A model generated the notes under the pieces. That model did not search any database, was not told the DNA's origin, and saw only the letters and a program-made list of their open reading frames with translations. DNA of 39,717 nucleotides from Rhizaria sp. SCN 62-66 (taxonomy: Eukaryota): positions 1-39,717 of the forward strand of contig MEDY01000289.1 of the NCBI GenBank assembly GCA_001724265.1, written 5' to 3'. The translations under genes and the position numbers were made by a program. Positions 4,229 to 34,400 of the stretch are shown here, one piece after another. Each line of letters starts with the position of its first letter. Position 1 is the first letter of the stretch.

Positions 4229-4896
4229 ACAACATCACTTGAGCTACACACAAATCGATTATATAGAAGACACGATTACTTACTTATCACGACTGTTTAT
4301 GCAATACACATTTTAACAACATGAGTTAGAAAGCTTAGTCAGAAAGCTTCTTTTGTATTCATTCTTGAATTCTGATTATGATTCCCTATCAAATTAGAAA
4401 GCTAATTGTACCCATTGCTTCAAGCAAATGAACACTGCAAGGTCTGTTGATGTTCCTGTTAGTTCGTTGTTGCGAAGTGTCATTCTCACTATACAGCCCA
4501 AGTCCTAGCGCACTGCTTGACTCTACTATCCCCCTTCCAAACAATTAATTATCGCCTAGTGATGACCATTGTATCACAGCAAGCAGCCGCATCTCATGCG
4601 ACAGACCGATTCCCGAATTTACATTACCACCAGAAATCAAAACTGATGCACACTGTTGCGATCTGTAATACGTCACAAAAAAGCGAAACAGATAGCGATG
4701 AAAGCTAACGAGGACACAACGTGAGTTGCTACTCCGAACAACTCACTGCCAGGGCTGAAGCAAACGCAGCGCACACAACAGCGAGCTCAGGAGATCCGCA
4801 ATCACAGTAAAAGTATTCTCGCATGATAGCTTAGCTTACCTAGACATCACTTGCTGGGACCTACACGCACCCATGCGTAGCAGTCGGCACGCGCGC

Positions 4897-7800
4897 TCAC
4901 ATGTACTGGCTCTGCGCGGCGTAGTACTGCGTGGCGCTGGCGCGCGGGGACGCGGCGCCGCTGCCGTCGCCGGCCGAGGCCGACGCCGCGGCCGCGACCG
5001 CCGCGGACGACACGCCCCCGGCAGCGCCGCCGGTGCCTGCAGCCGGCGAGGGCGCGGCGTGGAGCACCGAGGGCGTGCGAGCGCGCAGCACGTGGTCCTG
5101 TCCGCGCGACCCCGCGGCGGGGGCGCTGGCTGCCGAGCCGGCGGCGGCCGCGTCGCCGGGGCCCGTGGTGCTGCGACGCAGGCCCGTCGCGAAGTTGGGC
5201 CGGTCGATGCCCGCGCCCGCGCCGGCCGCGGCGGCGGAGTTGGAGGCGGAGTCGTAGGGCGGGGACATGTACGCTGCGGCGGTCGAGGGCGGGACGGCGA
5301 GAGAAGAGTGGTGCGAGGGGCTGGCAAAGGAGCCCGACATGGGGCTCAGCGCAGCCGCGGGGGACACCACGCCCGTGGCGCCCGGGGCCGAGGCCGAGGC
5401 GGCGACGGGGTTCGCCGTGATGATGAGCCCGTTACCGCTGACGCTCGAGGAGCTAGACGACGCCGACGCCGACATAGAGCCCGTCAGGCCCGCGCCCGAG
5501 GCGGACTGGGAGAGCGAGGACGCGGCCGTGACGGCGGGCGCCGTGGCGGTGCCAAGCGCGGACATCGAGGCCGCGGCGGGCAGCGCGGCAGTGCCGTTGG
5601 CGGCGGCCTCGCGGGCCTCCTTGAAGGCGGCCATCGAGGCCTCCCAGCTGGGAAAGTTGTTCGGGCTGACCTTGAAGAGGCGCATGGAGCCGAGGATCAC
5701 CTCGGGCTGCTCATCGTCCTCATAGCCCTCGATCGTGAAGCCCCAGTCGAGGATGACCTGGGACATCTTGGGGATGAAGTTGTAGAGCACGTTGCGCGCC
5801 ATGTAGCAGAAGTTGTGGATGTCGAGGCAATACTCGAGGTAGCCGTCGCCGCGGTGCACCGAGTGCTGCGGCCGCGTCAGGAACGGCTTGCCGTTGTACT
5901 GCGCGATGGTCTTGCGCAGCGCCCAGCCGAAGTCGAAGTCGTCGGCGTTGACGAGGCGCGGCAGGGCCTTCATGCGCAGCATCATGGCTGCGCCCTCCTT
6001 GGTGTCGAAGTCGGTTTCGGCGAGCCGCTTGAGCAGGCGCACGGCCGGGATCTGCGGCCCGCTGGCGTTGAGCAAGTCGCGCTGCGTCTCGTCCGACGCC
6101 AGCATGTACCACACCAACGTCAACGTCTCGCCGTCGCCCTTGGCGGACATCATCGACGGCTGGTACGTCGGCATGCTGAAGTTCACCACGAAGATCATCT
6201 TGCGGTCCAGAGTGCCGAAGTTGAACGGCAGCTGGCCGCCGATGTTGGCACCCGTGCCGGGGATGATGTCCGCGGCGGGGTCTGCGCGGGCCGGGGGCGC
6301 GCGCGCCTGCTCCGCCTTGGCCGCCAGGTACTCCTGCAAAGCGTCGGATTAAATGGGAATAGATCAAGGATGTTTGAGTGAGTTTTGAAAGAAAAATTAT
6401 TTTTTACACGTTGACATTAGTTTAGATCCCCAATATTAGGTTGCATATCAAGGTGTGCTATTTCAGTGAGACATATACAATATTGTTTTAGTTTGCTGCG
6501 TACCTGGTCGATCTTGCCGCCGAGCGAGACGTAGGGCGCGGGCTTCATGTTGCGGATCTCGTCCATGTTGATGTGCTTCGAAGCGTGAATGATCTTCTTC
6601 TCGCTGCGGAACACGTCCATGCCGACGAGGTTGAACAGCGACGGCGCCGAGGGGGCCTTCTTCTTGTTCTTCTTGTAGTTCGGTCCGCAGCGCACGGGCC
6701 ACGACTCGCCCTGGGGGTCGCTGTAGGCCGACACGTCGCCGGGCCCCGAGGAGGCCTTCATCGAGCACCCTGGCGTGATGCCTGCCGCGGACACGTTGGT
6801 GGCCTTGCCGGCGTTGTTAGCGCCCGCGACGAGCCCGCCCGTCGAGAGCGACGACACGGCGCTGTTGCTGTTGGAGCTCAGGCCGCCGTGGGGGTTGCCG
6901 CCGCCCGTGGCGCCGTCGTCGTCGTCGTTGGACGAGTCACCGCCGCCGGAGGACTCGCCCTCGCTCGCAGTCGTGCTGCCGCGGCGCTGGCGCGTGCCAT
7001 AGTGAGAGGACGGGGGCGAGTAGGCGTCGTCGCTGCCGTCGCCGGTCGACGCGCCGTCGCCGTAGCCGCTGTTGGTGATGCCGTTGCCCGCCGAGGCGCC
7101 GGCGGCGGCCGCGCCGGTCTGCTGGCAGGGCAGCTCGCCCATGAGCAGCGCGCGCGCGGCCGAGTGCAGCACGGTGTGGCCGTTGGCGGCGAGCGCCGAC
7201 GCGGGCTGCAGAATGGTGAGGCCGAGCGTGGCGGGGACGCCAACGATGGCGAGCAGGAAGAGGATGATATTGAGCACGGCCAGCGTGGCCAGGAAGGTCT
7301 TGGGCGTCGCCTCGCGCATCAGTAGCGCGGGCATGTTGGTCGCCGCGATGAGAAGCAGGAACGCCACGATGCCGCGCAGGGGCCACGTCGTCACGGGGAC
7401 CAGCGCGTCGCCGCGCGGCAGCTTCACCAGGCCCGCGCCCAGCTTGCCGTTGCCGCTCTTGGGCGCCACGATGATGCCCGGCAGCGCGCCGGCCTTGATG
7501 CTCCCGCCGCGAGCAGCAGCGGCAGCAGCGGCGGCAGCGGTCGGGGCAGCGGCGGCGGCGGCGGCGGCGGCGTTAGCGGCAGCTGCAGCAGCGCCGGCGT
7601 TGGCCCCAGCGGCGCCGCCGGCGGGGGCTGCGCCGCCCGCGCCGCTGGACGCCGGCGACGAGAGCGACGACGGGGTCACGTTGCCCGGGTTCGACCCAGC
7701 AGCGGCGGCGGCGTTAGCGGCGGTCGGCGCGGCGGGGACCGCGTTGGCGGCGGCCGCGGGGGTCGGGGCCGTGGGGGAGGCGTTGCCGGGAGCGGCCCCG

Positions 7801-11665: not shown

Positions 11666-11697
<32 letters not shown>

Positions 11698-13443: not shown

Positions 13444-15059
13444 GGCCTCGTACTTGTAATTGTAAGGATGCGTCAGCGCCCCAGTGCCCATGGTCAGTGC
13501 CCCAGTCAGTGTCCCGGTTAAGCGCTCTCTTGGCTTGACGATGATGATGACGACGCGACAAAGCGCCGGCGACAACGACGAGGTGACTATCAAGCACTCG
13601 GAGCAGGTATGTCTAAGAAGGTGTGATCTTGATCATTTGCGTTGTGCTGGTCTTTGCTTGTTTGTTCCTAAATGTGGGTGTGATGATACTTCATTTGAAT
13701 TCTTTACTTATGGTCACGCAAAGTAACGTTTTGTTGCTTTGTTCCATTTTCATGATGCTTATTCTACATGTCATAGTTACTCTGATCCACTTTTACTTGA
13801 TGTAATTTTCGAAATCGATGATGTGCATTGTTTCGTTGATAAATACTCTCACTCTAGTCATTCTCGTTATCCTCTTTGACTCATCCTTGTGTAGTTGTGA
13901 GTGTTTTACGACATGCTTTTTTGTGTATGTACTTTTTGTACATTTATTTTGCTCTTATGATTGCTACTTGCTCTCTTATCAGTTTGTGTAAGTTGTTGCA
14001 AACTGAATCATGCCATCAGTTATAGTAACATCAAGCCGTTTTGTTACTGTTATTGTTTATTTTTCATTTCGTTAAATCGTGATCACACATTCAACACATT
14101 TAGTTTCAGCTTAATTTAGTTTAGTCCTATTTTACCTCGTTTCTCCTGACACATGTGCTTTCGTCTTGTTTATTGTTTATATCTGTCACACCGACCTTAC
14201 ACTCGCAACGTCGCTGCAAAGCTTTTATTAGCTGTCGTGACTTAGAGTCGTTAACCGTTTCGATGTGTTCAGTCGTCATTTTGACTCTCGCATGTTGTCC
14301 GCTTGCTTCATTGCTCCCCCACTGTATTCACCGTGCATCCCTTTATTCACTACCACAAATTCACCCGCTCTAACTTATGCTGTAATGTCGATGATTACGA
14401 TATGCGTGATGTTTGTCTGGAGAGCGAACAGGGTTATGACATGCTTTGACACTACTGTCCCTGTGCTATACGCAGGGCTTTGACTGTGGTCACAGCCGGT
14501 GTAGCTCGACTCTCTGGGCGGGGGGAAATACAGAACTCTACTTAGCGATTCACTACTTCGTTATCCTTGTGCGTTCTCTGCGTTACTTTGCTCCGATACA
14601 CTGTAGGACGCTGTGATGACAACGCTATGGGACAGATATTTAGTATTTGACTATTCACATACGATTGAACGTTTTATTCACGAGTTTACGCCATAACGCG
14701 TTTTACAACGTACCGATTCTGCAATTCTTCAGTTTTTCGTCATCGACGCTGTTTTGGTGCGAGTTACGGGCAAGGAGATAAGCACTTTACTTCAATGCAC
14801 TCGATCCGGCCTCGCTCATCGTCAAATGTCAATGAAACGGACTAGTCCAGTACTTAATTTGTTTGTGATATCTTATCCTAAATTATATTGCTTTATGACG
14901 CCATCACATATTATACTTTGACGTTTTGTTCTCGCCCACCTGAACACGATCTTTGCAGTCGTTTTCTATCTGTCTAAAACGCGTACTAAGGCTTCATTAA
15001 CCGACGTTCAGAGGAAACCAAGCCGATTTCGGTAGGGCCCTGTGCCCTTCTGCGAGTAA

Positions 15060-18000
15060 ATGAGTGGTGTCTCCAGATCTATGTCAATTGGCGCGCCATA
15101 CGCTGCTGAAGAATCTACCACAAGCTCAACGATGTTCTCTCCAGCAGCTGAGCAGCGTGCTCTCTACAGCGCCACTGAAAGCTCATCTCTGGGCAGCACT
15201 ACGAGCCCGACACTTTACGTCCCTATGTCGCCCACCTCGTCCGTGTCGCAGCTTGTGTCGCCGCCATACCGCGCGGACAGCGACGGTGCAGCTTCCGCAT
15301 TCGACCAAACACCGGACCAGCAAGAGCGGTCGCAACTGGAGCAGCGCGAGCAGCAGCAACAGCAAACGGGGCCCCATCAGTCCCGCCCGCGTCCCTGCCC
15401 GCGCCCCCTGCAGCAGCCCCCGCAGCCGCGGCCGCCGCCCGTTTCTGTGCAGTCCTCGCTCGCGCCGTCCGCCGCCGCGGGCTCGGCGACCGCGATGTCG
15501 ATGTGGCCGCTCTGCTCCTTCCCGCCCACGCCGGCGCTGACGATGCCGGTCGTCGTCCCGCGCTACCACCCCGCCGCGCGCGCCGTGCCCGCGCTCGTGC
15601 GCGCGTCGCTGGACCGCGATCGCGTGTCGGTGCTTTCGACCACGGCGGCCACAGGGAGGACGACGACGAGGACCAGAACCTTCGCGGCCTCAGCGTCAGC
15701 GTCGTCAAGGACGGCGGGGGCGTCTGCGGTGACGAGGCATGGCGGCACTCAGCTTAGAACAGCGCCAGCGGCAGCGATAGGTGGGGCACGCACGGCTTCA
15801 TCAAATCTTGCTTGCAACAGTAACAACAAGCAAGGCCATTACAACAACAGCAACAACGACATGACCAACGAGAGCGCACCTACGATGACACTGAACGACG
15901 CCACACCAGCAGCGGATTTGCAGTCCACGGCCTCTGCCACCCAACCCCCCATGCTGGACTCCAGCGCACAGCGGTTGGCCGACTCACCGGTGGACGTGGT
16001 TGAGTCGCCGCTGTTCCTGGCCGAGAGCGGGTGCCTCGGTTCGGTGCCGCCGCACGACTACGAGCACGGCTACGGCTACTGCTCGCGGCTAGAGGACCTC
16101 AGCAACCACATGCAGACGCACACGTATGGGCACAGCGGCGGCCACAGTCATTTGCACGGCGGGACTGGGCGTAGTGGAGGTCATTCGGTGACGGTGACTG
16201 TGAGGGCCAACAGTACCAACAACAACAACAACGGCAGCGACGCTTATGTGAACCATCCGAGTACCAATGGTTCACAGAATGTAACTGCTACACTGCAAAG
16301 CCCAGACATGAGCAATCTCACAGCAAACATGAACGCTCGCAGTCACATGCAACACAGCTTCAGTCATCAGGCTGGCATTGCAGACGGTCACAGCGACGAC
16401 GACGGCGAAGGTGAAGAACTCGAGATGACTGCTCTGGGGGGTAGTGATATGGGTAATCTCGAACGAGGACGCGGGCTTCCTCGCTCGTAGTCGCGTGACC
16501 GAGGGCGGCCTAACTTTGTGGCCTCCCCGGGCAGCACAGGGCGCGGATTGCGCCAGAGGCCGATGCGCGACCAGCACCCGAGCCAGGGCCAGGGCCAGGA
16601 GCAGGGACAGGGGCAGGGAAGGAGGCACAGGTCTCGCCGCCGCGCCGTCGTGCCTCTGTTCCTGCCGTTAGTTGACCAAAGGCTAGTGGCGATGCTACAA
16701 ACCCCGAGCAACGACGGCAAAAACAGTAAATGCAGTGGCAACAAAGACACCACAGATAGCAGCGCTGATGCGGAGGCAAGCGCGGTCACCACAGCGCCTA
16801 CGGTCGCGGCCCCCGTTGCGGCGCACACGGTCACAGTGCCCGCTTTGACCTTGCTGGGCACGCTGGGCCTCAAGTGTGCGCTGCCCATCGATGCGGCGAT
16901 CACGCTCACGGCGCACGGCCCCATTCCCCCCGCCGCGCCCATAGTAGCCTGCCCCGACACGGGCACGCTCTACACCGACGCGCGCACCAACCTCACGCTC
17001 TCCTTCCTGCCCCTTGTCGTCTTCTTCATCTTAGCCGGATTGTTCCTTGCCGCCGCCGTGTCGGCGTTCCCGTACCCCTCGCTGGTGTCGACCGCGCTCG
17101 TCATGGTCCCCGTCGCCGCGCTGCTTGCGCTCTGGGCACGCGTACGCGCGCGCGCGCGGCTCGGCTCGCTGCTGAGCGTCTTCGCGCTGGGCGCGTGCGT
17201 CATGCTTGTCGTCACCGTGATTGGGCTCATCGTCTTCTTGCTCATCGCCTGGTTTGCGGGGCTCTTTTCAAGTGCGGCCACAGTTGCCGACGCCACGCCC
17301 GGCGGGCTCTCTCGCGCCTCGGCGCTGCGGTTAGCACTCAGCTACGCCTTCGTCGCGCTCTTCGTCATCGCGCCCAGCGAGGAGGCGATCAAGTACCTGC
17401 TCCTAACGCATCCACGCGCGGCACCGCTGCTGCTGCGCAACTCTCCGGAGTCGCTGCTGTACCACCTGGCGTTTCTGGCGGGCGTCGGCTTCGCCCAGAA
17501 CGCCTCGATCCTGTGGCTGGCAGTGGTGACGTTGCTGCCGTACTACGCTGCGGCCCCGCGCGGGCACACCACCTGGCTGCTGGTCGCCATTACGCTCTAC
17601 AACGCCGTCTTCACAACGCTCTCGCACGTGTTGTCGGGCCACAGCGTCATCTCGACCATCATCCTGCGCCGCTCCTTCCCGCATCGGCTGCCGCGGCAGT
17701 CGCGCCGCTCGCGCCGCCGCTTCGCGCCCTGCCCCGCGTTTGTCGCGGACCGCTGGTACGGGGCCATGATCCCGCCTGTGCTTGCCAGGGGCGTGTTCCT
17801 CACGCTCTTCATTCTGCCCGTTGGCTGGCCCGGTACGTGTGCTTATTGACGACTTGTCGTGACATGTGTATGAACGTGTTTGTCCAGATTTTGTGTAGCG
17901 AATGTCCTGTCCTGTTTCCGAAGTTTTTTCTATGTTATCTACTGATGTTTCTCACTTCAGTGTGCTTTTCATTCCATATTTTGTTTCCTTCGTACAGGCA

Positions 18001-18236
18001 TTTGGGGCATTCTGTCCCTCTACGCTGGCGCGCTGCTGGTATGCGGCGCGCTCTACGCCTACTCGTCGCACCTCGTCCGGCTGCTGCCGCGGAGGTTCCA
18101 CGCCGGACTGGGCGTGCGGGCTACGGTTGAGAAGAAGCGCGGTCGCGGTAGTCCTGTTGCTGCCGTCACGACTGCGCTTCCAACCACGACCACGAATCCG
18201 CTAGGTTCCGCTGCTCCTGTTGGTACTGCAACATAA
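15060..18236 (+). CDS. PrsW-like multi-pass membrane protein with long disordered N-terminus; exons 15060-17832 and 17998-18236; in-frame TAG at 16488-16490 (~1003 aa if read through)
   Basis: Track ORFs 15060-16490 and 16518-17849 share a frame and are separated only by TAG plus nine open codons. The C-terminal half has many TM segments and APSEEAIKYLL, AGVGFA and HVLSG. Exon 2 adds GIWGILSLYAGALLVCGALYAY and ends TAA at 18234-18236. Confidence 0.68.
17833..17997 (+). other. Spliceosomal intron, 165 nt
   Basis: G|gtacgt...ccttcgtacag|GC, T-rich; splicing continues the hydrophobic frame. Confidence 0.85.
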
Positions 18237-18575
18237 CAGAGGAGAGGAGTTGAAAAAATGAAGCACATTGCTTTCACTACTTAGAAACATCCTATTTAGC
18301 TATTATTTTTGTCAAATACATGCTTTTATGTCTTGAACATCACATTTTTAGTTGAGTTTGTAGCTTTTTGCCCGTTGAGGCTGGCCATGATGCCGACTTC
18401 CCCGCCTTGTACCAGATCTTTATTTTTGTTTTCTTCTCCGCAAAGCTCCGTCAATAGAATAACAGACCTTTGTTCGCAAATTAACGGTTTATTTCACATA
18501 TTATTATCTTTTTATACCTCGAAATTCCTGCAGTGTGTGGCATTGCCACCTTCGTAAGCTTGAGGGTGAGAAGCG

Positions 18576-21500
18576 ATGAGCTCCCTCTACAAGCAGAAAC
18601 CAGCGGCGGCTCCTACCTCCACACCTGCGAATGCGACGCAACCGATGACAACTGGAGCACAACTGCCAGTTAGACAAGGACCGACTGGAGCTACCTCTAC
18701 GCAAACCATGTCCGACTCTGACACCGTACAGCCGCCTCATCCCCCTGCTGCCAATGTACCTGCAACCTCTGCGACAACAGCTGTGCCGATCGCAAACCCG
18801 CACCCACGCCCGCTCCCGATGCCGCCGCCGCCCTCCACCGCCGGTGCCAGTCTCTGTCGGCCTACGCTGACAGCGTCGACGTCATCTACCGTGAATGGGA
18901 ACGCTCGTTTTGCCCCGCTGAACGCGTCCGCAGCGACGCGATCGATCTATCGCAACCCCAATGTTAGCAGCAGCTTGAGCGGTAGCACGCGCAGTCACCC
19001 CACCGCGACACGGCACGCCAACAGCAGCAGTGCGAACGTGTATTCCACACAATGCGGCGCGGCTGCTGCCAGTCAGTCTGTGCCACCGCTGCCGTCACAC
19101 CCTGTTGCAGCCCCTGCTGCCGCGGTCCCTCCTGCAGCTGTGACGAACACTGGTGAGTCACCAAACAACCCCGCACCCCAACTTCCGCTGCAGCAACCGA
19201 GGCAACAGCAACAGCCACGGACAGGTTTCCGGCCACTTTGCCCCCCACCACCAGCAGCAGCAACAACGGCGGCAGCAGCAGCAACGGCCCCGTCAGCCGG
19301 AGCGCTCGCGAGCGTGGCGGCCGCGCGCGCGTCTCTCTACAGCGCAAGGCGCGCGCCGTTTGTCCCCGTGGATGCGAGCCAGGGCTCCAGCCAGAATCAG
19401 CCGCAGTCCCACCTGCAGCCGCAGTTCCACTCACAGTCTTCGTCTCAACCACAAAGCTCCATCCAGAGCTGGCGTCAGAGCCAGAACCAGAGCCAGAGTC
19501 CTAGTCTTGAGACCTCCACCCCCACCGATACCTTGATTGCAACTACGACTGACATTTTGTCTGCAGCTGACTGTGAGCCGGAGCCTGCACCCGCAAGCGT
19601 GTCCGCGCACCTGAACGCCTCGCAATGGCGCGCCGTGTCGCTGCCGCGGTCCTCAGCCGCCGTTGTTCTCGCAGGCCCCGGCTCCGGCAAGACGCGCGTG
19701 CTCGTGTACCGCGTCGCCTACCTTATTTCGGTTGCGCGGGTGCTGCCGGACCGGGTGCTCGCGCTTACTTTTACCAACAGGGCCGCCCGGGAGGTCTTGG
19801 CGCGCGTCAAGGCGCTGCAGAGGCAGGGCTACAGCGTGTTCTCGTCCATTGCCACCGGTGACGAGGTCGCTGACGGCGACGACAGTGCTGACTGTAAGAC
19901 CAATGGCGCAGCGAGTTCGAGTAACGGGAAAGGTGGCAGCGCTGCCGGTGTCGGCGTCGGTGGCGGCGAAAAGATGCCCTGGGTCAAGACGTTCCACGGC
20001 TTCGCTCGCATTCTGCTGTCGAACTTCGCGCAGTACATCGCGTTCGCGTCTGAACACGCGGAGCCAGAACCAGATGCTGATGAGACAAGCGCTGACGCAA
20101 GCATTGCTCTTGTTGCTGGCGCTGTCAGCACCGATACTGCACATCTCACAGCTGGTTCAGACTCAGACAGTGATTCAAGCGGTGAGTCTGAACGCGATGA
20201 CAATGACGACGTTGATATTGACGAGTCCGTTTATGATGAATTTTACGCTAGTGCCCGCAGCCAATACGGCAATGTTGTCGGTTGCGCTGCATCTACGCCT
20301 AGGCACACTCATGTGCTTACGAGTCATGCCCACAGCAACTCGCGTGCCCACGGTCACGCCTCGGCTCGCAACCGCGCTGTTGCGCGCGCTTACGCGTACG
20401 CCAACACCGGGGCTCCCGCTCCAGCGCACCAGAGCCTGCACAGCAGCAGTGAAGGTAACCCGCAGCAACAGCGCGGGCGCGACGGCTTCGTCATTGTTGA
20501 CGACAAAGAGCAGACGAAGCTACTTAAGACCTCGATCACGGCTGCGACGATCGGTCTTGCGACTGCGGCTGCATCAGTCTCTTCGATGTCAGCGAAGTCA
20601 GACAATGGCTCTTACTTACCCTTTGATACGAGTGTTGATGCCAACGCGATTGCTGTTACTGCGACTGCTTCTTCTTCTGAAGCACAATCAGAGACTTCTG
20701 ACTTGCCACAGCCCTACACAGGCCTGCTGCCGCGCCCGCTGCTCCCCTCGGCGCCGCTATCCCCGCCCTCCACAACGGAGACAGCGTCGCTGCTGACCGC
20801 GGTGGCGTCCGCGTTTGCGTGCGAGTGGGCCTCGGCGCGGGCCGCGGCGGCGACTGCGCGCAAGGGCGACCAATGCCGGCTCAGTCTGCCGGTCTGCGCG
20901 CTGCGGCTGGGGGACCTGGTGGCGGCGCAGACGCGGCCGCGTTGGCGACTGTGCACCGCGGCGAACAACGACAGCAACGACTGCCACAGCGAGCCAAAGA
21001 GCAGCGGCACAGCCGGCGATGCCTCGGGTGCCCACTCCGAGAGTGTAGTGTTGCAACCCGCGGTCAAGCGGCCCCGCATCGCTGCCAATGACTCTGCGAC
21101 TGCAGCGACTGCGTCTTCGACTGCGCATGAAGCTGAATCCACTGCCAGCGCGGCGACAGCGAGCATCAGCGCGGAGGCCGAGGCGCACGCCGCCGCGGCG
21201 CTCGCGGCAACGACTCCCGCTGCAGCGGCGCAGGCGTGCTTTAACGCGGTCATCTCCCGTGCTCGTGGGACGCCGACGCAGACAGCGTTGTCCGCCGCTA
21301 CTGAACAGCCCCTGCAACAGCAGTTGCACACGAGGACATCGTCACCGTCGCCACAGACTGCGCCCGTGCGCGTGCCGGCCAGCAAGTTCCTGTCCACACC
21401 GCTGCCGACGCAGACTGCCGCGCCCGCGCCCGGCGCGTTCAGCGCGTTCATCGACTGCGCGAAGGCGCACTTCCTTCGGCCCGTCGACGTGCTCGCCCTT

Positions 21501-24500
21501 GCCGTTGCGCTAATGCTGCCGCCGGCCGCGAGCGCCGCCGTGACGGCGCCTGCGACGGTAGCTGCGCCACAGTTGCAGGCGCAGGCGCACCCGCTGGCAA
21601 ACTTATACTCGTCGCAGCTGCAGCAGGAGACTCAGTCACGCTACCAGTCACGGTCTCAATCCCACTCACAACCGCAGCTACAGTCAAGTCGCTATGGCCC
21701 CTCTGCGTCTGCTGGCTTTGGCTTCAGCAGGCCCGGCGCTGCTAGCGCTAGTCTGGACACTGGGGCAGCGGCTCTGGCCGGCTCTTTGTTCAACACGGAT
21801 GCCGATCGCGCGAATGCCAATATGCTTGCCAACAACAAAATCAGCCATGGGAGCATGAGCCAAAACATCAGCGCCAGTCTCAACAGCAATCTCAACAGTA
21901 GTGGCTCCAATGGCGGGTTTGTGCGCGCGTCTGCGATGTTACCGTCGATGAACCGCGGCAATGCCCCTTCAGTTCGCAGCAACGCCCACTTCGGGTCCTT
22001 CATTAACAAGAAGCCTACCGCGCCTGCCATCGCTAGTGACGTCGCCGACGTGGTCGATGACGAGGCTGAAGCTCCCACCCCCCCGCGCGATACATTCATC
22101 TCCGAGGCGGCCGCACGCACTCTGTCGCTTGCGGCCATCATCGCGCCGTCTCTCGCCCATTGCGCCCCGCCGTCAGCCCCACTAGACTCGACATCGGCCG
22201 CCGCTGGTGCGCTGCTCGCCAACACCGTCGCCGGCTACCCACTCTCCCCAGTTTCTGGCCGCGCTGCACCCTTCGCCGCCACCTACGGCGCCGGCGTCTC
22301 GAGTCTCGCCGGCAGCGCAGGCCCCGGGTTGCGCGCGCTGCTGCTCGCGGCCTCGGGGCCCGACGGCGACCTGGCCGTGCTGCGCCAGGGCTTCCGGCCC
22401 TCGGTCTGCGCTGGGTGCGCGGCCAGAGGGCTCTCGGGAGGAGGAGGAGGCGCTCACACTGAGAGTGACGGCGAGATGCTGGAGTCGGCCCTGGGCGTCA
22501 TCACGCCGATCGACGGCCTTGCCGCAGCGGCGCAACATCAGCAACCATTGTAGCAGCCCAGGGCCGCGGCGTCGGCTTCGGCAGATAACCGGCGCCGTTC
22601 TCCTCAGCCCCCGGCTGAGCCGAAGTCTAAGTGCGACTGTGGGCACGGGTCCCAGCGCCGGTCCCGCGTTCTAAGGGGCTGCGAGGACTACGCGGCCGCG
22701 CTGAAGTCATTTTACTTGGACGCCGACATCGCCGCAATCTCGCCCCCGTCAGCACAGTCAATTACGGGTCAGTTACCCACCAGCCAATCAGCTGTGAGCC
22801 AGACTACGGCGAGCCAGGCCGAGGCGCGCCGGGCGGCCACTGTGAGCCGCGGGGTCCTGGACCTGACGACCCGCGTCGCCGAGATGCGACTAGAAGGCCT
22901 TCGCCGCTTACTTTCGCTGCACGCGACAGCGACGACAACAACATCAGCGGCCGTGGCAACTGGGAGTAACACGAATCCTTACAGCAGTGCGTCAAACGAC
23001 GGTCTGGCGGACGTGCTCCCCCGCGCCGCCTCGGTGCTGGCGGCGGCGCTGCCGACCATCGACACGCCGGCCTTTGCGCTGGCAGCGCTCGTGTTCGCGG
23101 CCTACGAGCGCGCCCTTGCGCGCGCGCGCGGCGCCGACTTCAACTCGCTGCTGTCGCACGCGCTGGCGCTGGTGTTGACCCACCGCTCCGTGCAGGGCTG
23201 GGCGGGCCGCCGGTTCGAGCAGGTGTTGGTGGACGAGTTCCAGGACTCGAACGCCATGCAGTACCTGCTCGTGCGCGCCATGGTGCCCGCATTTACCTGT
23301 GGCGGCCCGACCTCTCAGCATGCAGCAATCGCTCTCGACAATCATAACAGCAGCAGCAACAGCAACAGCAACAGCGGCACTAACAAAAGCTTGACTGTGT
23401 GCGACGCAGCCGCGCAGAACTCGTCTCAGCCGGGCAAGAAGGGTTTCTTCGTCGTCGGTGACCCGCACCAGAACATCTACCTGTGGCGCTTCGCGACGCC
23501 GCGCAACATGCAGCTTGTGTTCGAGGACTACGCCAGCGCGGTGCAGGTAAACCTGCGCGAGAACTACCGCTCCACGCCGCGCATCGTCGAGTTCTGCAAC
23601 AAAATCGTGCACGCGACAGCGCCCCCAGCACTTTTACACAGTCCAAATACAACCGGGAGTGGCGCCAAGACGAACGGAAACGGTCTCAATAACACCTACG
23701 ACGGTCGTCCGATAATGCCAGTAGAACGCAGCAGCAACGCCAATTGCGCAGCGCTCACCACGTATCGAGCTCCAACAACCGCTGCGTCGGCCGCAGCTGG
23801 TCCCGCCCCCCCGACTGCTGTCGGAGCCCGTGTCACGCTGCCGCTGGCGCTGCAGCCGCTGGCGCCGCCTCTGTCGTTGCCGTCGCGCATGCTGCTGCCG
23901 GCGCCGTGCCGCTCGCCCGCCGCGGCGCCTGGGCCGGTGCCGTGGCTGCTCGAGTGTCTGGCGCCGGAGCAGGAGGCGCTGTTCATCGCCAGCGCCATCT
24001 ACCAGCTTACGGCCGCGCGGCCCAGCCCCTGCGGCGGCTATTTCCAGCGCGCGCTGTGCGAGCCGCGCGAGATCGCCGTACTCTACCGGACCGCGGCCGT
24101 GGGCAAGACGGTCGAGGCTGCGCTGCGGCAGGCCGCCAAGGCGGCGGCCACCACCTCGGCGGCAGCGGCCCGGACCCAGGGCAAGGAGCGGGGCAGGGGT
24201 TAGCCGAAGCGCGAGAGCGGCTCTGGGGGACGCGAGCCGGGCGGTGGATACACAGGGTTTATGTTCGACTTCTCGTCGACATCAGACTCTGCATCAAGCG
24301 CTGGTAACGTCGCCAACAAGACGGGGCGCTCCCGCGCTGGTGCGGGCTTGACCGTGAGCGAGCGCATGATGCGGTACGTGCTTGCGCAGGGCTTCCCCGA
24401 CGTCACGGGCGACGGGCGGGCCGCAGTCCACGGCTGGGACCCCGAGTGGCGGCCCGAGCCCGGCACGGCAGCGGTCAGGCCGCAGCAGACGCAGAACAAG

Positions 24501-27500
24501 CACTTTGCGACACCGCTCTTTGGCAGCAGCAACAACAAGACTGTTGCCATGACTGATGGCGGCGGCAGCGTTGACGACGCCGAGCTTAGCAGTGGTACCA
24601 CCAAGCCTCTGATGTCGCTGCAGCGCCCGCTGCTGCACGTCGGCTTCACCGTCGTCGGTGGCAGCAAAAGCTACGACCGCAAGGACGTCAAGGACGCGGT
24701 TGCCTACGTGCGCCTAGCCGTCAACGGCGCTGACGCGCTCGCGCTGGAGCGCGCCGTCAACACTCCCCCGCGCGGCGTCGGACCCGCAAAGGTCGCCGCG
24801 CTGATGCACTTCCTGGAGCACGCTGACATTTTTCGGTACCGCGAGCGTGAGCACGAGCGCGAGCGCGCGCGCAGGCGGGCGCAGCGGCGTCGGCTACGTC
24901 CCGGCCAGGCATCTCAGACTGGAGCGAATCGCCCTTTTATCGCAGCCACATCGACCGCTAACATGAACGACGATGACGACGACGGCGGCGGCGACAATAG
25001 CGACGATGACGACTGCAGCTCTGACAGCAGCGACTCCGGAGATGGCAGCACCATAGACCACCCGCGCCGCCCCCGCGGCGGCAAGCGCGGTGGGCCGGAC
25101 TTTACTGACGTCTCGTTTAACCCCGCGCTGTATCGCGGCGAGGGCGCGCTGCCGCCCGGAGTCATCCCCAAGGCAGACCGCAAGGGCGCTGCGACCAACA
25201 CCACCGCGGCGCGCGCTGCCGCCTCCGCGCGGGCCGCGGACGAGCCCAACGCTGCCGCCGCCGCCGCCACAAAGGCTGAGGTCGACGCTGCTGCGAGGGC
25301 GAGGGCGGCTGCTGAGGGCAACGCGACCGGCGAGGGCGTGATTGTGAGCAAGGCTAGGCGGGAAATCAAGGGCCCGTCGAGGCGGCTTAACTTGTTCGAG
25401 CGGCTGCTGTGGGTATTGGACCAGGTCTTCGCGCCCGACGTCGACGCGGTGCTGCGGCAGCAGCAGGAGCAGGCGCACGCGCTCGCACAGGCGCAGCTGC
25501 AGATTCAGCAGCGGACGTTGCGGCAGCAGTCGCAGTTTTATAACCAATTCCAGCCCAGTTTCGACCCTTTCAGCGCTGCTGATGGTGCTGCTGCAAACTC
25601 CGGCAGCGGTGACGTTGTTTCAGATGCTTGGCACCGTCTATCCCCTGATGTCTTTGTCGGAACTGGCTCCGTGGCCGTCGCTTATACGAATAGTGGCACT
25701 GGTTTGAGCCCCATTAGCGTGCAGACGACTGCAGCAGGCATCAGCCCCACCGGTGCCTCACATGTACCGGCCAACGGTAACTCCGTGTTTGTGCGCGCCG
25801 GTGCGCTCTACGCCAACTTCAAGCGCAAGCCGCCTCAGTCAGCCACACCGACTGCATCGACCGCGTCACCGGTGCCGAACACGTGGACTCCATCAGCAGC
25901 TGTGCTCGCGCCTGCACCCGCGCCCGCGTCTGCACCTGCGTCTGTGTCTACACCTGCGACGGAGGCTTCGCCAGCCCAGCCAGGCGCGCAGCCTCATGCC
26001 GTCACGCCGGCGTCAATGGCCGATTTGCTTGCTGCAGTGAAGGCTTCTACGGACGCTGTGACAGCGGGCGACAACAGTACACCTGTCGCAAACACGCCCA
26101 CCGACACTGGTGTCATTTTCGCCACGCGCCCTGGTGCGAGCAGCAATGTGTTGGACCGGCTGATGGCGAACGCTGCCCGCGGCGGCGCGCGCACACCGAT
26201 CTCCAAGCGCAACTCCCCTGCGAAGGTCGCGAAAGCCGCGAACGCTGCAGCCTCGCCCGTTCCCGCTGCGGCGACGGTGCCCAGATCAGCGCCCGCCACC
26301 AAAACGACCGCGCCTGTCGCCGCTGCCAAGGCGGCTGCTGCTGACGCCAAGACCGGCAAGGGTACGCATGCCGTTTCCGCTGCGAGTGCGAGCGGGAGGG
26401 CGCCCGCGAGCGCGAAGTCGCTGTTTGCGCAGTGGCGGCTGCCGCGCGCAGGAGATGGCGGCGGCGCGGAGACTCGCTGCGCTGCTTATAGCGGCGTATC
26501 AATCCACCGTGCGAGCGCGAGTCCACCTGTCCCCGCAGGTGTCGTCGCGCCGATGGTAAAAATCGAGTTGGTTGATGATGGCGACGCTGACGCCAGTCGC
26601 GGCGATGCGGCCCCGACCACCGGCAGCAATCGCACTGACCACGACGATCTCGACGATGACGACGACTATGGTGCGAGCAAGAAAGACAATGCAGCCACAA
26701 GTTTCGCTGTCTTGACAGCGAGCAAGAGCACGAGCAGCACCCCCGCCGCCGTCGAGGATACAAACGGCGTCGGCGTGACCATTGGTGGCGACGTCAGCAA
26801 TGGCTCGCGTCCCATGTCCTACATTATCGCCACCACGAAGCGCCCCACGTCGACGCCGCCGTCCGGTTCCCTTGCTGGCAGCTACCACAACGACATAACA
26901 AGCGCTGGTGCGTTTGTCCCGGCGTTCGGCGCCAACGCCAACAGGTTTCTTCTTCAGTCCGCGGTCGACGGCTCTACGCGCGCTCTGCAGCGGCCCACCG
27001 TTACCCCGCTCTCGGTCGCCACTGCCGCCGCCGCCAATGGGGCTGACTCGGGCGCGGTGGCCAACAGCAGTGTTACCGGCACGACGGGTGCTCCAGCGAA
27101 GGCCGAGCCTCTGCTGCCTGCCGCCCCTGCCGCCACCGCGTCGGCCGCCGCGCGCACTGCGTTCCTCAAGGCGCGGCTGGAAGCGCTCGGCCGCCTCCTG
27201 GGGCTGCCAGCGCTGAGCCTGGTGCAGTGGCAGGCGCTAAGGGACTTCGCGCGGGTTGTCGTCGGCGCGCGGCGCATGGTCTTCGGACTCGGGTCCGCGT
27301 TGTCAGATGCACTGGTGCGTCATGCCCCGAGCGCTAGCGTGGCAGCGAACGACGGAAATGACACCATCAGAGGTGTCTCTACGTCCAGCACCACATCCGC
27401 GGTGTGTTCTAGTGCGGACACCGCAGCACCGAGTGCCAGCGCAGTGTGTGGCGCCGTCTGCGGCGGGTGCAGCCGCCCCGTCGCCCCCAGCTCCGGCGTC

Positions 27501-30476
27501 GCCGCGGCCGAGGCGCAGGCGTTGCGCCGGTCCTGGGGCGTCAAGCGGGCCGCCCGCGCCCAGCGCAGTGTCGCGGGCAGCGGCGGCGCGGACGGCGGCG
27601 GCGACGACGACTCGCGGAGCGACGAAGACGGCGACGATGACAGCGAGCACGAAGATGGAGTCAAGGGCGAAGACGGCGCCGACAGCTTGTTTTGTTCCGC
27701 GGCATCGTTGGCCGCCGGCAGCAATGGCCGCAAGCGTGGCCCTAACAGCTCCGGTCTCCACTGCCAGTGTGGGTGCTTTTGCCACCTCTGTCAGCCACAG
27801 AGGCCGCAACAGCGAATCCCGCCCTTGCTGCAACCTGACACCGATTCGCGCGCTGACGACGGCTACACGCAGGCTGGCACGATGGCGAAGACCGACGCCG
27901 CCGCGCCGACCGTGGGCGCGTCGATCGAGGCTGTGCTCACGTACATCGTCCACGCCGCCGGGTTTGCGGCCCTGCTCGCCCCCGCTGCGGCCGCGGCCCG
28001 CGCCATCAGGACTGCCCTCGCCAAGCAAGAAGGCGACTCTGCTGCCGCAGCATCTCTTGCGGCAGCGGTTGCAGCCGCCAACGGAATTAACTATGACGAG
28101 GACGCTGGCGACATCGAGGACAACAATAGCGCCTCTGCGGCGACTAAACTGAAGACTGAGTCTACCGGTAGCAAAGCCGTGGCGGCTGCGAAAAGTGGTA
28201 AGGGCAAAAACAAGACTGCTGGGATGCCTAAGATCACGGATTTCCTTGCCGCTGCTCCCAGAAACAGTTCGAGCTTAGCGCTGACGGGCGCCGCAACAAC
28301 ATCGCACGCGGGCAGCGGCCCGCAGTCCCGCTCTACGTCGCCCGCCTTCGTCACCGCCCGCTCTGAGAGCATCGCTAGCAGCAGTGACGGCACGATCTCC
28401 AAAGCGCAGGGTGCTGCACCAGCTGTCGCGGCTTCTCCTGCTGCGGCAGATGCCGCTGCCGCCGACGCTCTTGCAGCCGCAGGTGCCGCGGTGCCTTCAG
28501 CGGCGACCGAGGCGTGGGAGTCGTTGCGCGAGCTGCTGCTGCTCGCAAAGCGTGTCGACGATACTACTGCAGCGAATACCAATATCGCTGACCTCAGTTC
28601 CTATCTCGAGCTCTTGGGTTACGATAACCAGAAAATGTCGACTACTGATGATGACGATCTTGACAGTGGCACAAGCCCTGCTACCGCGCACGCCAGCGCG
28701 CGCGTCCTGCCGACCGAGAGCGACAGCGACAGCGAGGGCGAGACCTCGCGGGAAGGCGGCGCGCATGTGCGTGTGACGGTAAAGCGCGGTATCGCGTTCG
28801 CGAGTGGCACTCTGTTTGCTGCGTCTGCTCTCCGCAACAACGTTCATCGTCGCCCGACAGTGCCGCGACTGCAGCACGCGCCATTCGCGCCCAGTGACTC
28901 CCACACGGATGCTCAGCATGCCGCGCCCAGTCTGGACAACACCCCGCGTCACCGCCTCGCCTCGGTCGAGCGCGCGTGGCGCCATGCGGAGCCCGTCACC
29001 GAGTTCCTCTCGGACTGCCTCCTCGACCCCGCGTTGGGGACCGACTTCGCGCCGCAGAGCGATGAAGTCAAGCTGCCGCCTGCGCCTGGGAGCCTGCCTA
29101 CTGTCAAAGAGATGCCCACTGTCAAAGAAGAGGAGACCAAGCTGCAGTCAGAGACGCTCACGCGAACAACGGCAGACTTGCTTTCCACAAGTGGTCTTGC
29201 TGATGTAAGTAAAGGAGCTGCAGATGCGTCCCGTTTACTTCGTTTGCCTAGTCACACGATTAACTTCAACACAATTACCATTCCATCTGATACCGGCGGC
29301 GACGACAGTACACGAGCTCACCGCGCTAGCGCAACTGCAAGCGCGAATGCGAGTGCGAGTGTACGTGCTGCGGCCCCACGCTACACGCCTCCGGACGCGA
29401 ACAACCGCGTGACTCTGTCGACGATCCACGCGGCCAAGGGGCTCGAGTGGCGCGTCGTCTTCCTTGCAGGCGCGCAGGAGGGCTCATTGCCGCACGTGCG
29501 CACGCTTGCCGCACAGCACACCGTCGCAACAGTCGCGTCGGCGACACCGCAACAGCAGCGAACCCAACAGCAACATTTGGCCGAGAGTGAGGAAGTTGCA
29601 GAGGAGCGCCGAATGGGCTACGTTGCTGCAACGCGCGCACGGGAGCGACTGTTCGTAACCTACTGCATCCGTCGCAATTTCGGATATCACAACAACAACA
29701 ACAACAATGACAACAGTGCCGAGGCGCTATTGAAGGATGACGGCGGCTTCGCTGGCGGGCCCCGCGGCGCTGCGGCCGCTGCAGGCGCCGGGTCCGGTAG
29801 CGCTGGCGGCGTCGCCGGCGCTAATGCGAGCGGGGCGGGCAGCGAGTTGAGCCAGGAAGACATGGGGGCTCTCTTCGAGAAGCGGCAGCGCGAGCGCGAT
29901 GCAATCACGCGCAAATACGCACTCGTGCAACATCAAGAGCAGCTGTCACTGCGGCAACGGACGGCTGCGAAGCGCAATAGCTGCACGATGTCTGTATACT
30001 ACGGCGAGGATGAGGAGCAGCAACAACAATACGCGTTGCGGCTGTGGGCCAACCCCGCTGCTCACAGTCATACGCATCACCATCAACAACCCCCGCAACA
30101 ACAGCGGAGTCGCGGGCGCTTGTTAGGGACACTACCCGAGTTTTTGCCGTACTCGCTATCGCGTCTGTCACGTTTTTTTGGGCACATTGAGCTCGCTCCG
30201 ATATACGTTGCACCATCTACATCTACTGCATCTGCGACTTTGCCTGCGACTTTGCAGCGTCAGAACCAGGCAACGTCGTCGAGTGCAAGTTTGAATGCCA
30301 CCGGGACGCTAGGTCAGAGCGAGCTAGTTGAGCATGTTAGGGGGGACTGGGGCGTGCAGGTGCGCACGGTCTCTTTGGCGCGCCCGATCTTTGAGTTGAT
30401 CAATGGGGAGGCGCTGCAGCGTGAGGAGCAGCAAAGGAGGGACCGGCAGGAATGGCGCGGAGATGACGACGACTAA
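18576..30476 (+). CDS. Giant UvrD/PcrA/Srs2-family SF1 DNA helicase (~3966 aa if read through) with in-frame TAG at 22551 and 24201
   Basis: Motifs in canonical order in one frame: LNASQ, AGPGSGKT (19671), LTFTNRAA, TFHGFA, then TAG, DFNSLL, VDEFQDSNAMQY (23229), VGDPHQNIYLWRFA, ENYRST, IAVLYRT, then TAG, YDRKDVKDAVAYVRL..NTPPRGVG, TIHAAKGLEW (29421), EERRMGYVAATRARERL (29601). Final stop TAA, then AT-rich spacer. Confidence 0.88.
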
Positions 30477-31478: not shown

Positions 31479-34400
31479 ATGCTTCGCAGTCGGTTTACCA
31501 CTGCCGCGTGCATCCTTGTTGTCGTCGCGTGCGCTTCGTTTGCGGCTGCTCAACAGAGCCCCGGCAACGATGGCTGGCGTCAATGCACTACGACCAACTT
31601 TTGCTATCGCACACGCGAGCGCGCGCCGGTCTCTTACTCCCTCTCGAACGTTGAGCACACAGATAACGGCGTGACCACATTCCGTCTCAATGCCCAGAAC
31701 GTGGACCCCGCGCTGTACCCGTCACACCTTGAGGCCGAACTTGGTCTGCTGACCTCGGGCGCCGTGCACTTCCGCGTCACCGAGTCCTCGGATATCACCG
31801 ACAAGAAGGGCAAGCGCTTCGAGGCCGCGCCCTACGTGCTCGTTCCCGACGCCCTTACGATTGAGCCCAACCCGACGCGCTTCTTAGACGAGACCTATTT
31901 CACCATCTCGCGCCCTAACGGGACGCACGGGATTAAGGTACTCTTCAAGCCCTTCAAAATGCAGTACATCATCAACAAGTTCGAGGTCATCGCCGAGTTC
32001 AACAGCGAGAGCTTCTTCAACGTCGAGCAGCGCCGCGCGCGCCATGCGAGCGACCCCGCCGAGGCGTGGAAGGAGACCTGGGACGGCTGGACCGACACCA
32101 AGCGCTTCGGCCCCTCTGCGCTCACCTTCGACGTGTCGTTCCCGGAGTCGCAGGCGCTGTTCGGGCTCCCGGAGCACACCAACAACATCGCGCTCAAGCG
32201 CACGCGCGGCAAGGACCGCGAGCACGACGAGCCCTACCGCCTGTACAATCTCGACGCGTACGGGCACCCGCTCGACTCGCCCGCCGCGACCTACGGCATC
32301 GTGCCCCTCGTCACCTCGCACTCGATCCGCGGCGGCAACGGCAACGGCAACATCCAGTCCGCCGCTGACGGCAAGCCTCTGCGCGAGACGCGTCTGCGCC
32401 GCATGTACAACGATGCCGTGTCTGCCAGCTCCGCCGCGAAGCTGTTCTCGGTCTCCGCGGGCGTTTTCTTCCTGAACCCGTCCGAGACCTTCGTCGACGT
32501 GGGCCGCTCCGAGCGCGACGGCACCCCCTACACGCGCTGGATGGCCGAGTCGGGCGTGCTGGAGCTCTTCTTTCTGGGCGGCAACACGCACGCCGACGTG
32601 GCGCGCCAGTACCACCTACTCACGGGGCTGCCGCGACAGCCGCCAGCGTTCGCGATGGGCTACCACCAGTCGCGTTGGAATTATGTCGACGACAAGGACC
32701 TCACCGACGTGGCCAACAAGTTCACAGAGTACAAGATCCCCATGGACGTCATGTGGCTCGACATTGACCACACGGACCAGATGAAGTATTTCACCTGGGA
32801 CAAGAAGGCCTTCCCGAATCCTGCCGTGATGCAGAACTACATCGGCATGGACGGCCGCCAGCTCGTCACTATCGTCGACCCCCACATCAAGACCACGCCC
32901 GGTACGGTGAAATAACGAACGCCACGGTATTTGTGAACAAAATCACATCACAACACATATATCTGAACCATCGTTTTTCTCACTCTTTTAACTTGTTGTT
33001 GTCTCTTTTGCTGTGATTTGCATTACTGTTTGTCGCTCTAGGCTACCACGTGTACGACGCGATGACCGCGGGCGACCTGTTCATCAAGGACGGCGCCAAC
33101 AATACCTTTGTCGGCGAGTGCTGGCCGGGCCGCTCGAGCTGGGTTGACTTCACGCTGCCCAAGGCGCGCGCGCAGTGGGGCGAGTTCTTTGCGCTCGACA
33201 GCTACAATGGCTCCACCGTCAACCTGCACATCTGGAACGATATGAATGAGCCCTCGGTCTTTTCGGGCCCCGAGAAGACGATGCCCAAGGACGCGCTGCA
33301 CAACAACGGCGCGATCGAGCACCGCGAGCTTCATAACCTCTACGGCTTCCTCTACAACTCGGCCTCGAGCGACGGCCTCTCCGCGCGCCAGCTCAAGTCG
33401 GTCCCCGCGCCGCCGATGATGGCGCCGCCCGCAGACGCGCCCAAGGGCTCCGTTACCGTGACCCCGGTCGCTGGCGCGGCCATCTCGGCGCAGCGCCCGT
33501 TCCTGCTTACGCGCTCCTTCTTCGCCGGCACGCAGCGCATCGGCGCCGTCTGGACCGGCGACAACCAGGTACATGCTCACCCTCGCAATCTCCCTTGCTA
33601 CATCACATCCGTTTATTGCGATGTCGTCCAATTTCTCTTCGAATCAACGATTTTATGTTCCGTAAATTTTAAATATACCTGTTAGTGCATATCTCATCGA
33701 GTCATACCTTGTTTTGTTTCTATTTTCTCTATTGTGAATGTGAACAACAGGCCACGTGGGGCTTCCTGCGCTACTCGCTGCCCATGCTGATGAACCTCGG
33801 CATTGGCGGCATCTCCTTCTCCGGCGCTGACGTCGGCGGCTTCGCGGGCAACCCCGACGTGGAGCTGCAGACGCGCTGGTACCAGGCCGCCGCGCTGACG
33901 CCCTTCTTCCGCGCGCACAGCAGCAACGACACCGCGCGCCGCGAGCCCTGGCTTTACGGCGAGCCGCACGTGAGCAACATCCGCGACGCCATCCGCGTGC
34001 GCTACACGCACATGCCCTACGTCGTTACGCAGTTCCGCCACGCCAACGCCACCGGCCAGGCCCCGCTCCGTCCGCTGCTTCAGGTACGCGCGCGCCCTTG
34101 CATTCGCAGTGCAACAATTGAACGTGTGATGTCTTGAGTGATTATATCACAAATGAAACGATCATATTTTCATTGCATTACAGCTCTGGTATCATTCAAT
34201 TTCTCAAAAGCACATCATTCTCACACGTCTTTATTGTTCTCTTCTGACCGTTTTATGATAGGCGTTCCCCCTCGACTCCAAGGTCATCTTCACGGACGAC
34301 GTGTACATGCTGGGCGACGCCGTGCTGGTGGCGCCCGTGCTCGAGGCCGGCAAGTCCACGGTCGACTTCTACATGCCGCTCGAGACGGACGGCAAGCGCT

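Follow-up and report, generated by a model that had tools for sequence, protein, structure and literature searches.

In-frame UAG codons in two genes of an uncultured wastewater protist and the case for their translation

Is UAG still a stop codon in the organism deposited as Rhizaria sp. SCN 62-66? The question is raised by contig MEDY01000289.1 of assembly GCA_001724265.1, positions 1 to 39,717 of which were analyzed and are referred to here as the window. This 39.7-kb stretch has a GC content of ~62% and carries nuclear eukaryotic genes, which encode an AAR2-like protein, an EDR2_C-domain protein, the B12-dependent methionine synthase MetH, a membrane protein, a giant UvrD-like helicase, a GH31 glucosidase, and malic enzyme. 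TAG occurs in frame three times in the ~10,400 codons of the whole window, always on the plus strand and in two adjacent genes. One copy, at 16488..16490, is codon 477 of the gene for the PrsW-like membrane protein (context GLPRS*SRDRG, where the asterisk marks the TAG; next base T). The other two, at 22551..22553 and 24201..24203, are codons 1326 and 1876 of the helicase gene (contexts QHQQPL*QPR and ERGRG*PKRES, each with C as the next base). Across the 4895 codons of these two genes, neither TAA nor TGA interrupts the reading frame, and no frameshift occurs. Having weighed the evidence set out below, we regard it as somewhat probable that UAG is translated rather than terminating in this organism, with UAA and UGA still serving as terminators, and we infer that this reading of UAG applies genome-wide.

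The evidence that carries this interpretation comes from the helicase. The gene occupies 18576..30476 on the plus strand, comprises 3966 codons in a single exon, and ends in a TAA at 30474..30476 that is followed by A. Pfam recognizes PF00580 (1.2e-41) and PF13361 (4.3e-34) in its product, each split over several stretches, with the N-terminal UvrD domain split across the first TAG. When the 3966-aa frame was compared with the single chain of UvrD1 (9dci_A), there were five collinear stretches, with a whole-sequence E value of 3.6e-43. Specifically, helicase residues 330-414, 1491-1571, 1624-1709, 2002-2082, and 3605-3708 matched chain positions 5-90, 177-256, 268-353, 376-458, and 586-666, which places the first TAG (codon 1326) between chain positions 90 and 177 and the second (codon 1876) between positions 353 and 376. 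The core blocks are also collinear with 1pjr_A and 2is1_A, and all of the superfamily 1 (SF1) motif blocks downstream of the TAGs are intact. We take Walker A to lie before the first TAG, DEFQD and motifs III-IV to lie between the two, and motifs V-VI to follow the second. In addition, the sole relative found, on a metagenome contig designated L001, encodes the same protein as one uninterrupted open reading frame (ORF) of 2994 aa (6743-15727). The window helicase aligns with it in collinear blocks before the first TAG, between the TAGs, and after the second, with 33-38% identity in the blocks. Because the frame is collinear with UvrD1 and has this uninterrupted homolog, both TAGs must be read through if the complete enzyme is to be produced. 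Judged from its sequence, then, the helicase is one gene, and its full protein could not be made without reading both TAGs. Production of three separate helicase polypeptides was considered and set aside: the cuts would break up a single ATPase core, and the DNA downstream of the TAGs is neither a spacer nor AT-rich in the manner of a promoter.

The helicase is unusual in other respects. While its core blocks and Pfam matches (PF00580 and PF13361) are those of the UvrD/PcrA/Rep group of SF1, it is ~5 times the normal length of such proteins owing to low-complexity inserts. An exhaustive search of 1.84 billion representative proteins returned only the window's own pieces, the L001 protein, and ordinary UvrDs of ~700 aa, so a similar giant form was represented there by L001 alone. 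A metagenome scan for related DNA yielded only L001, at 33% identity. Gene calls made under the standard code have split the helicase into database proteins of 1325, 469, and 2071 aa; the database clusters of these pieces have one member each, and they contain no strain variant of another length.

The membrane-protein gene (15060..17849, plus strand) consists of 929 codons in one frame apart from the TAG and ends in TGA. In its product, a long N-terminal stretch of low complexity precedes a multi-pass membrane domain at the C terminus (16902-17846). The GC content at third codon positions (GC3) is highest in its frame both before and after the TAG, with no internal low-GC spacer. No gene boundary lies at the TAG at 16488, since nothing like the real spacers of the window follows 16490. 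Those intergenic spacers, obtained by subtraction of gene coordinates, measure at least 669 nt, and each has a low-GC island. Pfam did not confirm the PrsW-like label given to the domain in the initial annotation, returning neither PrsW (PF13367) nor any other match at E values up to 10. The label is only suggested, by features and structure in ESM Atlas (features 0.91; 28 of 30 matches in PrsW clusters; structure TM 0.48/0.65). An EExxK-like motif in the domain was seen by eye only.

The three TAGs are not assembly errors: contigs assembled from other samples, one set of them from a different study, carry the same letters. Window DNA is present in metagenomes from 2015-2025 (bioreactor, wastewater, and activated sludge), and ORFs of the window are on record from contigs of up to 120,861 bp. 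Two of the runs compared (X2 and X3, with assemblies of 2016/2017) look like one data set filed twice, while another (X4), from another study in 2025, represents a strain with single-nucleotide polymorphisms (SNPs). Contigs of X2/X3 span all three TAGs with no other letters: the TAG at 16488 is unchanged in contig 15425-21344, that at 22551 in contig 21346-22649, and that at 24201 in contig 22772-25303. The TAG at 16488 is also unchanged in an X4 contig (15703-17676) that has 3 SNPs elsewhere. A second X4 contig reaches the TAG at 24201 but starts merely 23 bases upstream of it, and no X4 contig over 22551 was among the matches listed.

Composition and gene ends bear on how the TAGs are treated by the cell. 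In this window, low-GC islands correspond to introns and spacers and GC-rich blocks to exons, with noncoding DNA at ~40% GC. On both sides of every TAG, GC peaks at the third codon position, the DNA is GC-rich and exon-like, and GC3 downstream stays high (0.80 and 0.71). Seven gene ends were mapped (4226, 4897 on the minus strand, 13441, 17847, 30474, 35003, and 35689 on the minus strand), and these comprise 5 TAA, 2 TGA, and 0 TAG. As an aside, TAA ends five of the seven genes despite a third-position GC of 70-94%. The gene ends and the in-frame TAGs together fit a code like translation table 15, in which only TAG is affected. The TAG-bearing genes have weak codon bias (GC3 of 0.68-0.83) compared with the strongly biased enzyme genes (0.87-0.94). 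As the initial annotation observed, all three TAGs sit in weakly biased, low-complexity genes and none in the enzyme genes. At the same rate per glutamine codon, ~1.5 TAGs would be expected in the enzyme genes and none is seen, a difference that is not significant. On our reading, UAG would behave as a rare, disfavored sense codon confined to weakly biased low-complexity genes. The standard code has difficulty explaining how two neighboring genes could carry three nonsense codons, fixed in different samples, when the helicase motifs downstream are intact and the genes show no further damage. Mechanistically, and by analogy with all of the cases that have been worked out, translation of UAG would call for a tRNA with anticodon CUA that reads UAG and not UAA, one base change from tRNA-Gln(CUG) or tRNA-Leu(CAA). 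Such a tRNA could act jointly with an eRF1 that reads or binds UAG poorly, as has been argued for Rhizaria sp. exLh and Iotanema in the part of PMC5304391 available to us.

Several results weigh against this interpretation. The absence of TAG from the gene ends points toward a changed code, but seven ends are a small sample, and chance would produce this result with P ~0.13-0.2 if TAG ended one-fifth to one-fourth of genes. Since TAG makes up 58-62% of the one-step nonsense outcomes in these genes, nonsense mutations arising at random would all three be TAG with P ~0.2. The metagenome relative L001 has a standard-looking code and ends two of its four genes in TAG, so any code change must be confined to the lineage of the window. 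ARAGORN and Rfam found no tRNA or other Rfam RNA in the 39.7-kb window; eRF1 is not among the window's genes. Between 15703 and 29781, the X4 strain has 12 fixed differences from the window, of which 4 are synonymous and 8 nonsynonymous, with no sign of purifying selection. All 12 are transitions, and the two genes thus display a very strong transition bias and little visible constraint. A polyA-RNA run (X5) has contigs on the helicase before the first TAG and after the second, as well as downstream of the TAG in the membrane-protein gene. Their distribution fits UAG not being a stop, but no RNA contig across any TAG was among the X5 matches listed. Finally, the case for readthrough is weaker for the membrane-protein gene than for the helicase. 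A Met downstream of the TAG could serve as the start of the PrsW-like domain, and therefore 16488 need not be read through.

Could the standard code account for the same observations? One explanation is that the TAGs are recent nonsense mutations, CAG to TAG or similar, in dispensable genes early in decay, or alleles picked by the assembler. We consider this a minority possibility. TAG is the type of nonsense codon to be expected, given its majority share of one-step outcomes, with CAG as the main source, and the exclusive transitions between strains agree with such an origin. The strain differences look neutral, all sites lie in low-complexity parts of weakly biased genes, L001 uses TAG stops, and a glutamine-like context at the first helicase TAG is just what a CAG-to-TAG change would leave behind. 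This explanation has to place three nonsense codons in two adjacent genes without a frameshift, a TAA, or a TGA in 4895 codons, whereas neutral decay giving two or three nonsense changes should, on a rough estimate, also have given several indels. In addition, the SF1 blocks after the TAGs are intact and ~34% identical to L001, GC3 is undiminished downstream while noncoding DNA has ~40% GC, the TAGs are fixed in the 2016/2017 assemblies (that at 16488 also in the 2025 strain), and none of the seven gene ends uses TAG. Alternatively, the code may be standard and these particular UAGs leaky or programmed for readthrough by near-cognate tRNAs (Gln, Tyr, or Lys), which would yield little full-length protein. 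A pyrimidine follows all three in-frame TAGs (T, C, and C), whereas a purine follows six of the seven true terminators (Fisher P ~0.03), which fits weak termination contexts. The first helicase TAG is followed by CAG-CCC, near the tobamovirus-type readthrough context of UAG-CAR-YYA. For canonical-code organisms, near-cognate readthrough mediated by tRNA-Gln has been reported, according to the section of PMC13192750 available to us. Even so, a known motif is resembled by just one of the three contexts, and three pyrimidines out of three have P ~0.06 if ~60% of first codon positions are purines. If readthrough had to occur twice in succession on a single mRNA of 3966 codons, hardly any full-length helicase would result, and the shortened proteins would be without half of the ATPase core. 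We judge readthrough under the standard code to be decidedly unlikely.

A further explanation is that the mRNA no longer contains the TAGs, which would be lost either as parts of GC-rich introns whose lengths are multiples of three or by editing of UAG to CAG or UGG. MetH and the GH31 glucosidase are interrupted by four clear spliceosomal GT-AG introns, which show what an intron looks like in this genome. These verified introns (12775-13100, 32902-33041, 33569-33750, and 34084-34261) are 142-326 nt long, with GC of 0.38-0.41, a GTACG or GTACA donor, and a YAG acceptor followed by G. Each in-frame TAG is formally usable as a YAG acceptor. Among in-frame GT..AG candidates with GC below 0.55, there is only 16200-16490 (291 nt, GC 0.53), which ends on the TAG itself. 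That no listed RNA contig spans a TAG leaves room for such events. The TAG sites have none of the features of the verified introns, namely the low GC, the GTACG/GTACA donor, and the G after the acceptor. There is no intron-like low-GC island near any TAG, neither a joint nor another letter was found at the sites among the matches listed, and two introns in the helicase would both need to keep frame. Removal or editing of the TAGs is, in our estimation, very improbable. With respect to the RNA itself, X5 depth was zero in 4 of 30 bins, all four of which lie in the two intergenic spacers, and this too accords with UAG not ending these genes. One X5 contig falls inside the MetH intron (at 12934), while the intergenic spacers are without RNA depth; this contig may reflect intron retention or pre-mRNA rather than carry-over of DNA.

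The identity of the organism matters for which residue UAG would specify. The MetH sequence indicates that it is probably an uncultured, GC-rich cercozoan of wastewater bioreactors. The closest relatives seen of the window MetH are two proteins, P0007 and P0008, both 73% identical to it and encoded by contigs of 181,966 and 30,274 bp, respectively. At 1300 aa, P0007 is long enough for a full-length single ORF, which suggests that it has no intron at the site of the MetH intron in the window. The best named matches are Mataza sp. (63%) and Paulinella (60-61%), followed by a euglenid, chytrids, and animals (59-61%). A tree of 37 MetH sequences was made by quick search under LG+G4, with support from the Shimodaira-Hasegawa-like approximate likelihood ratio test (SH-aLRT) only and with no sainouroid sequence included. 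In this tree, the window, P0007, and P0008 form a fully supported clade that is sister to Paulinella (80) within a clade with Mataza (89). Searches of genome contigs gave no match by exact 41-mer and none with the AAR2-like protein, and with the P0008 MetH they gave only contigs of isolates or metagenome-assembled genomes labeled bacterial, at 41-60% identity. ESM Atlas offered no informative taxonomic signal for malic enzyme, and Rfam detected no rRNA in the window. A trypanosomatid affinity, guessed from the low-complexity GC-rich ORFs, was dropped on account of the clear GT-AG introns in MetH and GH31.

If UAG is translated, glutamine is the residue we would favor by a modest degree, leucine is a serious alternative but distinctly less probable, and all other residues taken together are about as improbable as leucine. 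These judgments rest on a literature prior, the transition bias, and a phylogenetic hint; glutamine is the likeliest residue on such priors rather than on the peptide context that had been cited for it. The initial annotation pointed out that the first helicase TAG lies in AQHQQPL*QPR (22530-22562), that PLQQPR occurs at 19185-19202 in the same frame and gene, that the TAG of the PrsW-like gene sits in RS*S, and that RSQS is found at 21651-21662. Our translations agree with each of these observations, with the stop at 22551-22553 being TAG and PRS*SRD being read at 16488-16490. What did not hold up is the conclusion that local context points to glutamine. When flanks were calibrated on the window's own proteins (~10,400 residues), a flank of two residues before and three after, as in PL?QPR, recurred at 506 of 10,399 positions and predicted the true middle residue at 105 of them (21%). 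A flank of two before and one after, as in RS?S, was correct 12% of the time, which is below the frequency of Ala and no better than guessing Ala. Within the window proteins, RS?S is completed once each by M, Q, T, E, and Y, while PL?QP is completed twice by Q and once by L, with PLLQP in the same helicase. Moreover, PLQQPR and PL*QPR differ in their codons, and their DNA gives a poor alignment. A glutamine-like context would also be left by an ordinary nonsense mutation from CAG to TAG, so that such a context tells of the ancestral codon and not of present decoding. More one-step changes to TAG start from CAG than from any other codon (37-39% at kappa 2), and it is plausible that it was the ancestral codon at the TAG sites.

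Some of the context results count against glutamine, although context of this kind has little predictive power. Q fills none of the 40 occurrences of G?P that carry a residue. When the seven residues reachable from TAG in one step are compared at the three sites by a model based on the ±1 neighbors, Leu receives 0.49-0.56 and Gln 0.06-0.30. Nor could the residue be read from a conserved column, because the three sites all lie in low-complexity stretches with no aligned homolog. Helicase residues 1250-1950 found no homolog spanning the TAGs among proteins of 2181-6941 aa, and in L001 both helicase TAGs fall between aligned blocks, in unaligned inserts. The 929-aa gene had no homolog among proteins of 510-1626 aa, candidates that were probably chosen by low-complexity words. 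Fast-changing low-complexity sequence would tolerate TAG as leucine or anything else. Leucine has to be kept in view, given the placement within Cercozoa in the MetH tree and the meaning of UAG in Rhizaria sp. exLh, a member of the Sainouroidea, where UAG encodes leucine and the terminators are 56 UAA, 15 UGA, and 0 UAG (PMC5304391, in the portion available to us). The kinship of the window MetH with Paulinella (SH-aLRT 80) and Mataza (89), both Cercozoa, the resemblance of the exLh terminators to the 5 TAA and 2 TGA counted here, the neighbor model, and the PLLQP of the helicase all speak for leucine. Leucyl-tRNA synthetase ignores the anticodon, and a tRNA-Leu(CUA) would thus arise easily (PMC5304391). 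The same source counts 384 UAG in 71 genes of exLh, compared with 3 TAG in ~10,400 codons here. The three weakly biased genes hold 72 TTG against 3 TAG, and TTG to TAG is a transversion while the strain differences are transitions without exception. In addition, the three sites are polar and disordered-looking rather than hydrophobic, and the placement within Cercozoa comes from one gene and a tree that has no sainouroid sequence. We therefore consider it unlikely that UAG is a sense codon meaning leucine, as in exLh, or another residue other than glutamine; the probability we allow for this is contained in that given to translation as such. Of the proposal that UAG is a disfavored third glutamine codon, as in table 15, the parts that are supported are that TAG is read through and that only TAG is affected; the part that is not is the assignment of glutamine from context.

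Our interpretation, that UAG is translated, can be set beside codes that are already known. The literature matches listed included no further variant code from a cercozoan or from a eukaryote of activated sludge, and exLh is the only known rhizarian variant as far as the available text of PMC5304391 goes. The organism described here is like exLh in that it probably belongs to the same supergroup, uses UAA above UGA with no UAG stop, and avoids UAG in highly expressed genes. It differs in that UAG is the commonest leucine codon in the proteasome genes of exLh, whereas the TAGs of the window are rare and confined to disordered, polar stretches. The habitats differ as well, with exLh living in an insect and the window organism in bioreactors. 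According to the passages of PMC11687900 available to us, glutamine is the commonest published meaning of a reassigned UAG; UAG alone encodes glutamine in Iotanema, Protocruzia, and phyllopharyngean ciliates, and it encodes serine in Scotinosphaera. As in this table 15 type, represented by Iotanema spirale, Protocruzia tuzeti, and some phyllopharyngean ciliates, only UAG is found in frame in the window and UAA is the main terminator. Unlike those organisms, the source of the window is placed by the MetH tree outside both ciliates and fornicates, and UAG is far rarer in it. UAG makes up ~8% of the glutamine codons of Iotanema (PMC5304391) compared with ~1% in the window if it means glutamine (3 versus 263 CAG and CAA in three weakly biased genes). 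The meaning of UAG in table 15 organisms was read from many conserved columns, of which the window has none. Codes in which both UAA and UAG (UAR) encode glutamine are found in many ciliates, hexamitin diplomonads, oxymonads, ulvophycean algae, and Amoeboaphelidium. These would share with the window, if UAG is glutamine here, a tRNA one base from tRNA-Gln. They also reassign UAA, which in the window ends five of seven genes and is never in frame.

The remainder of the window offers some additional observations on gene structure. Exons have a GC content of 0.6-0.69 and introns are sharply AT-rich, such that exon borders are marked by composition alone in this organism. On the minus strand, putative introns at ~6340-6416 (EDR2_C gene) and ~36127-36203 (malic enzyme) are based on Pfam continuity and GC3 only. 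The plus-strand ORF at 4873..6381 is an antisense artifact with a first-codon-position GC of 0.92; the real gene opposite it is the EDR2_C-domain gene, which lies on the minus strand at 4897-8261 and has two exons.

What would translation of UAG mean for the evolution of genetic codes? One lesson is that local peptide context is unfit for assigning the meaning of a reassigned codon. Another is practical: gene callers using the standard code have already cut the helicase into pieces, so the code of eukaryotic bins from samples of this kind should be checked before they are annotated. If the reassignment is real, it adds a further case to a type of variant code that is already known, and Rhizaria may then have two. 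It would also supply an independent data point on the uncoupling of UAG from UAA, in an abundant, uncultured protist of wastewater. If the residue is glutamine, two meanings of UAG would have arisen within one supergroup. Because UAG is so rare here, the window might show an early stage of reassignment. We tentatively entertain, as a possible but doubtful scenario, a second and independent stop reassignment in Rhizaria in which UAG has been freed from termination and has barely begun to accumulate as a sense codon. In this scenario, UAA dominates gene ends despite a GC3 of ~0.9, and UAG has so far entered ~1% of glutamine codons, restricted to weakly expressed genes of low complexity and always before a pyrimidine. 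Were this true, the organism would offer a view, in nature, of the intermediate stage postulated by codon-reassignment theory, at which a codon is unassigned or ambiguous.

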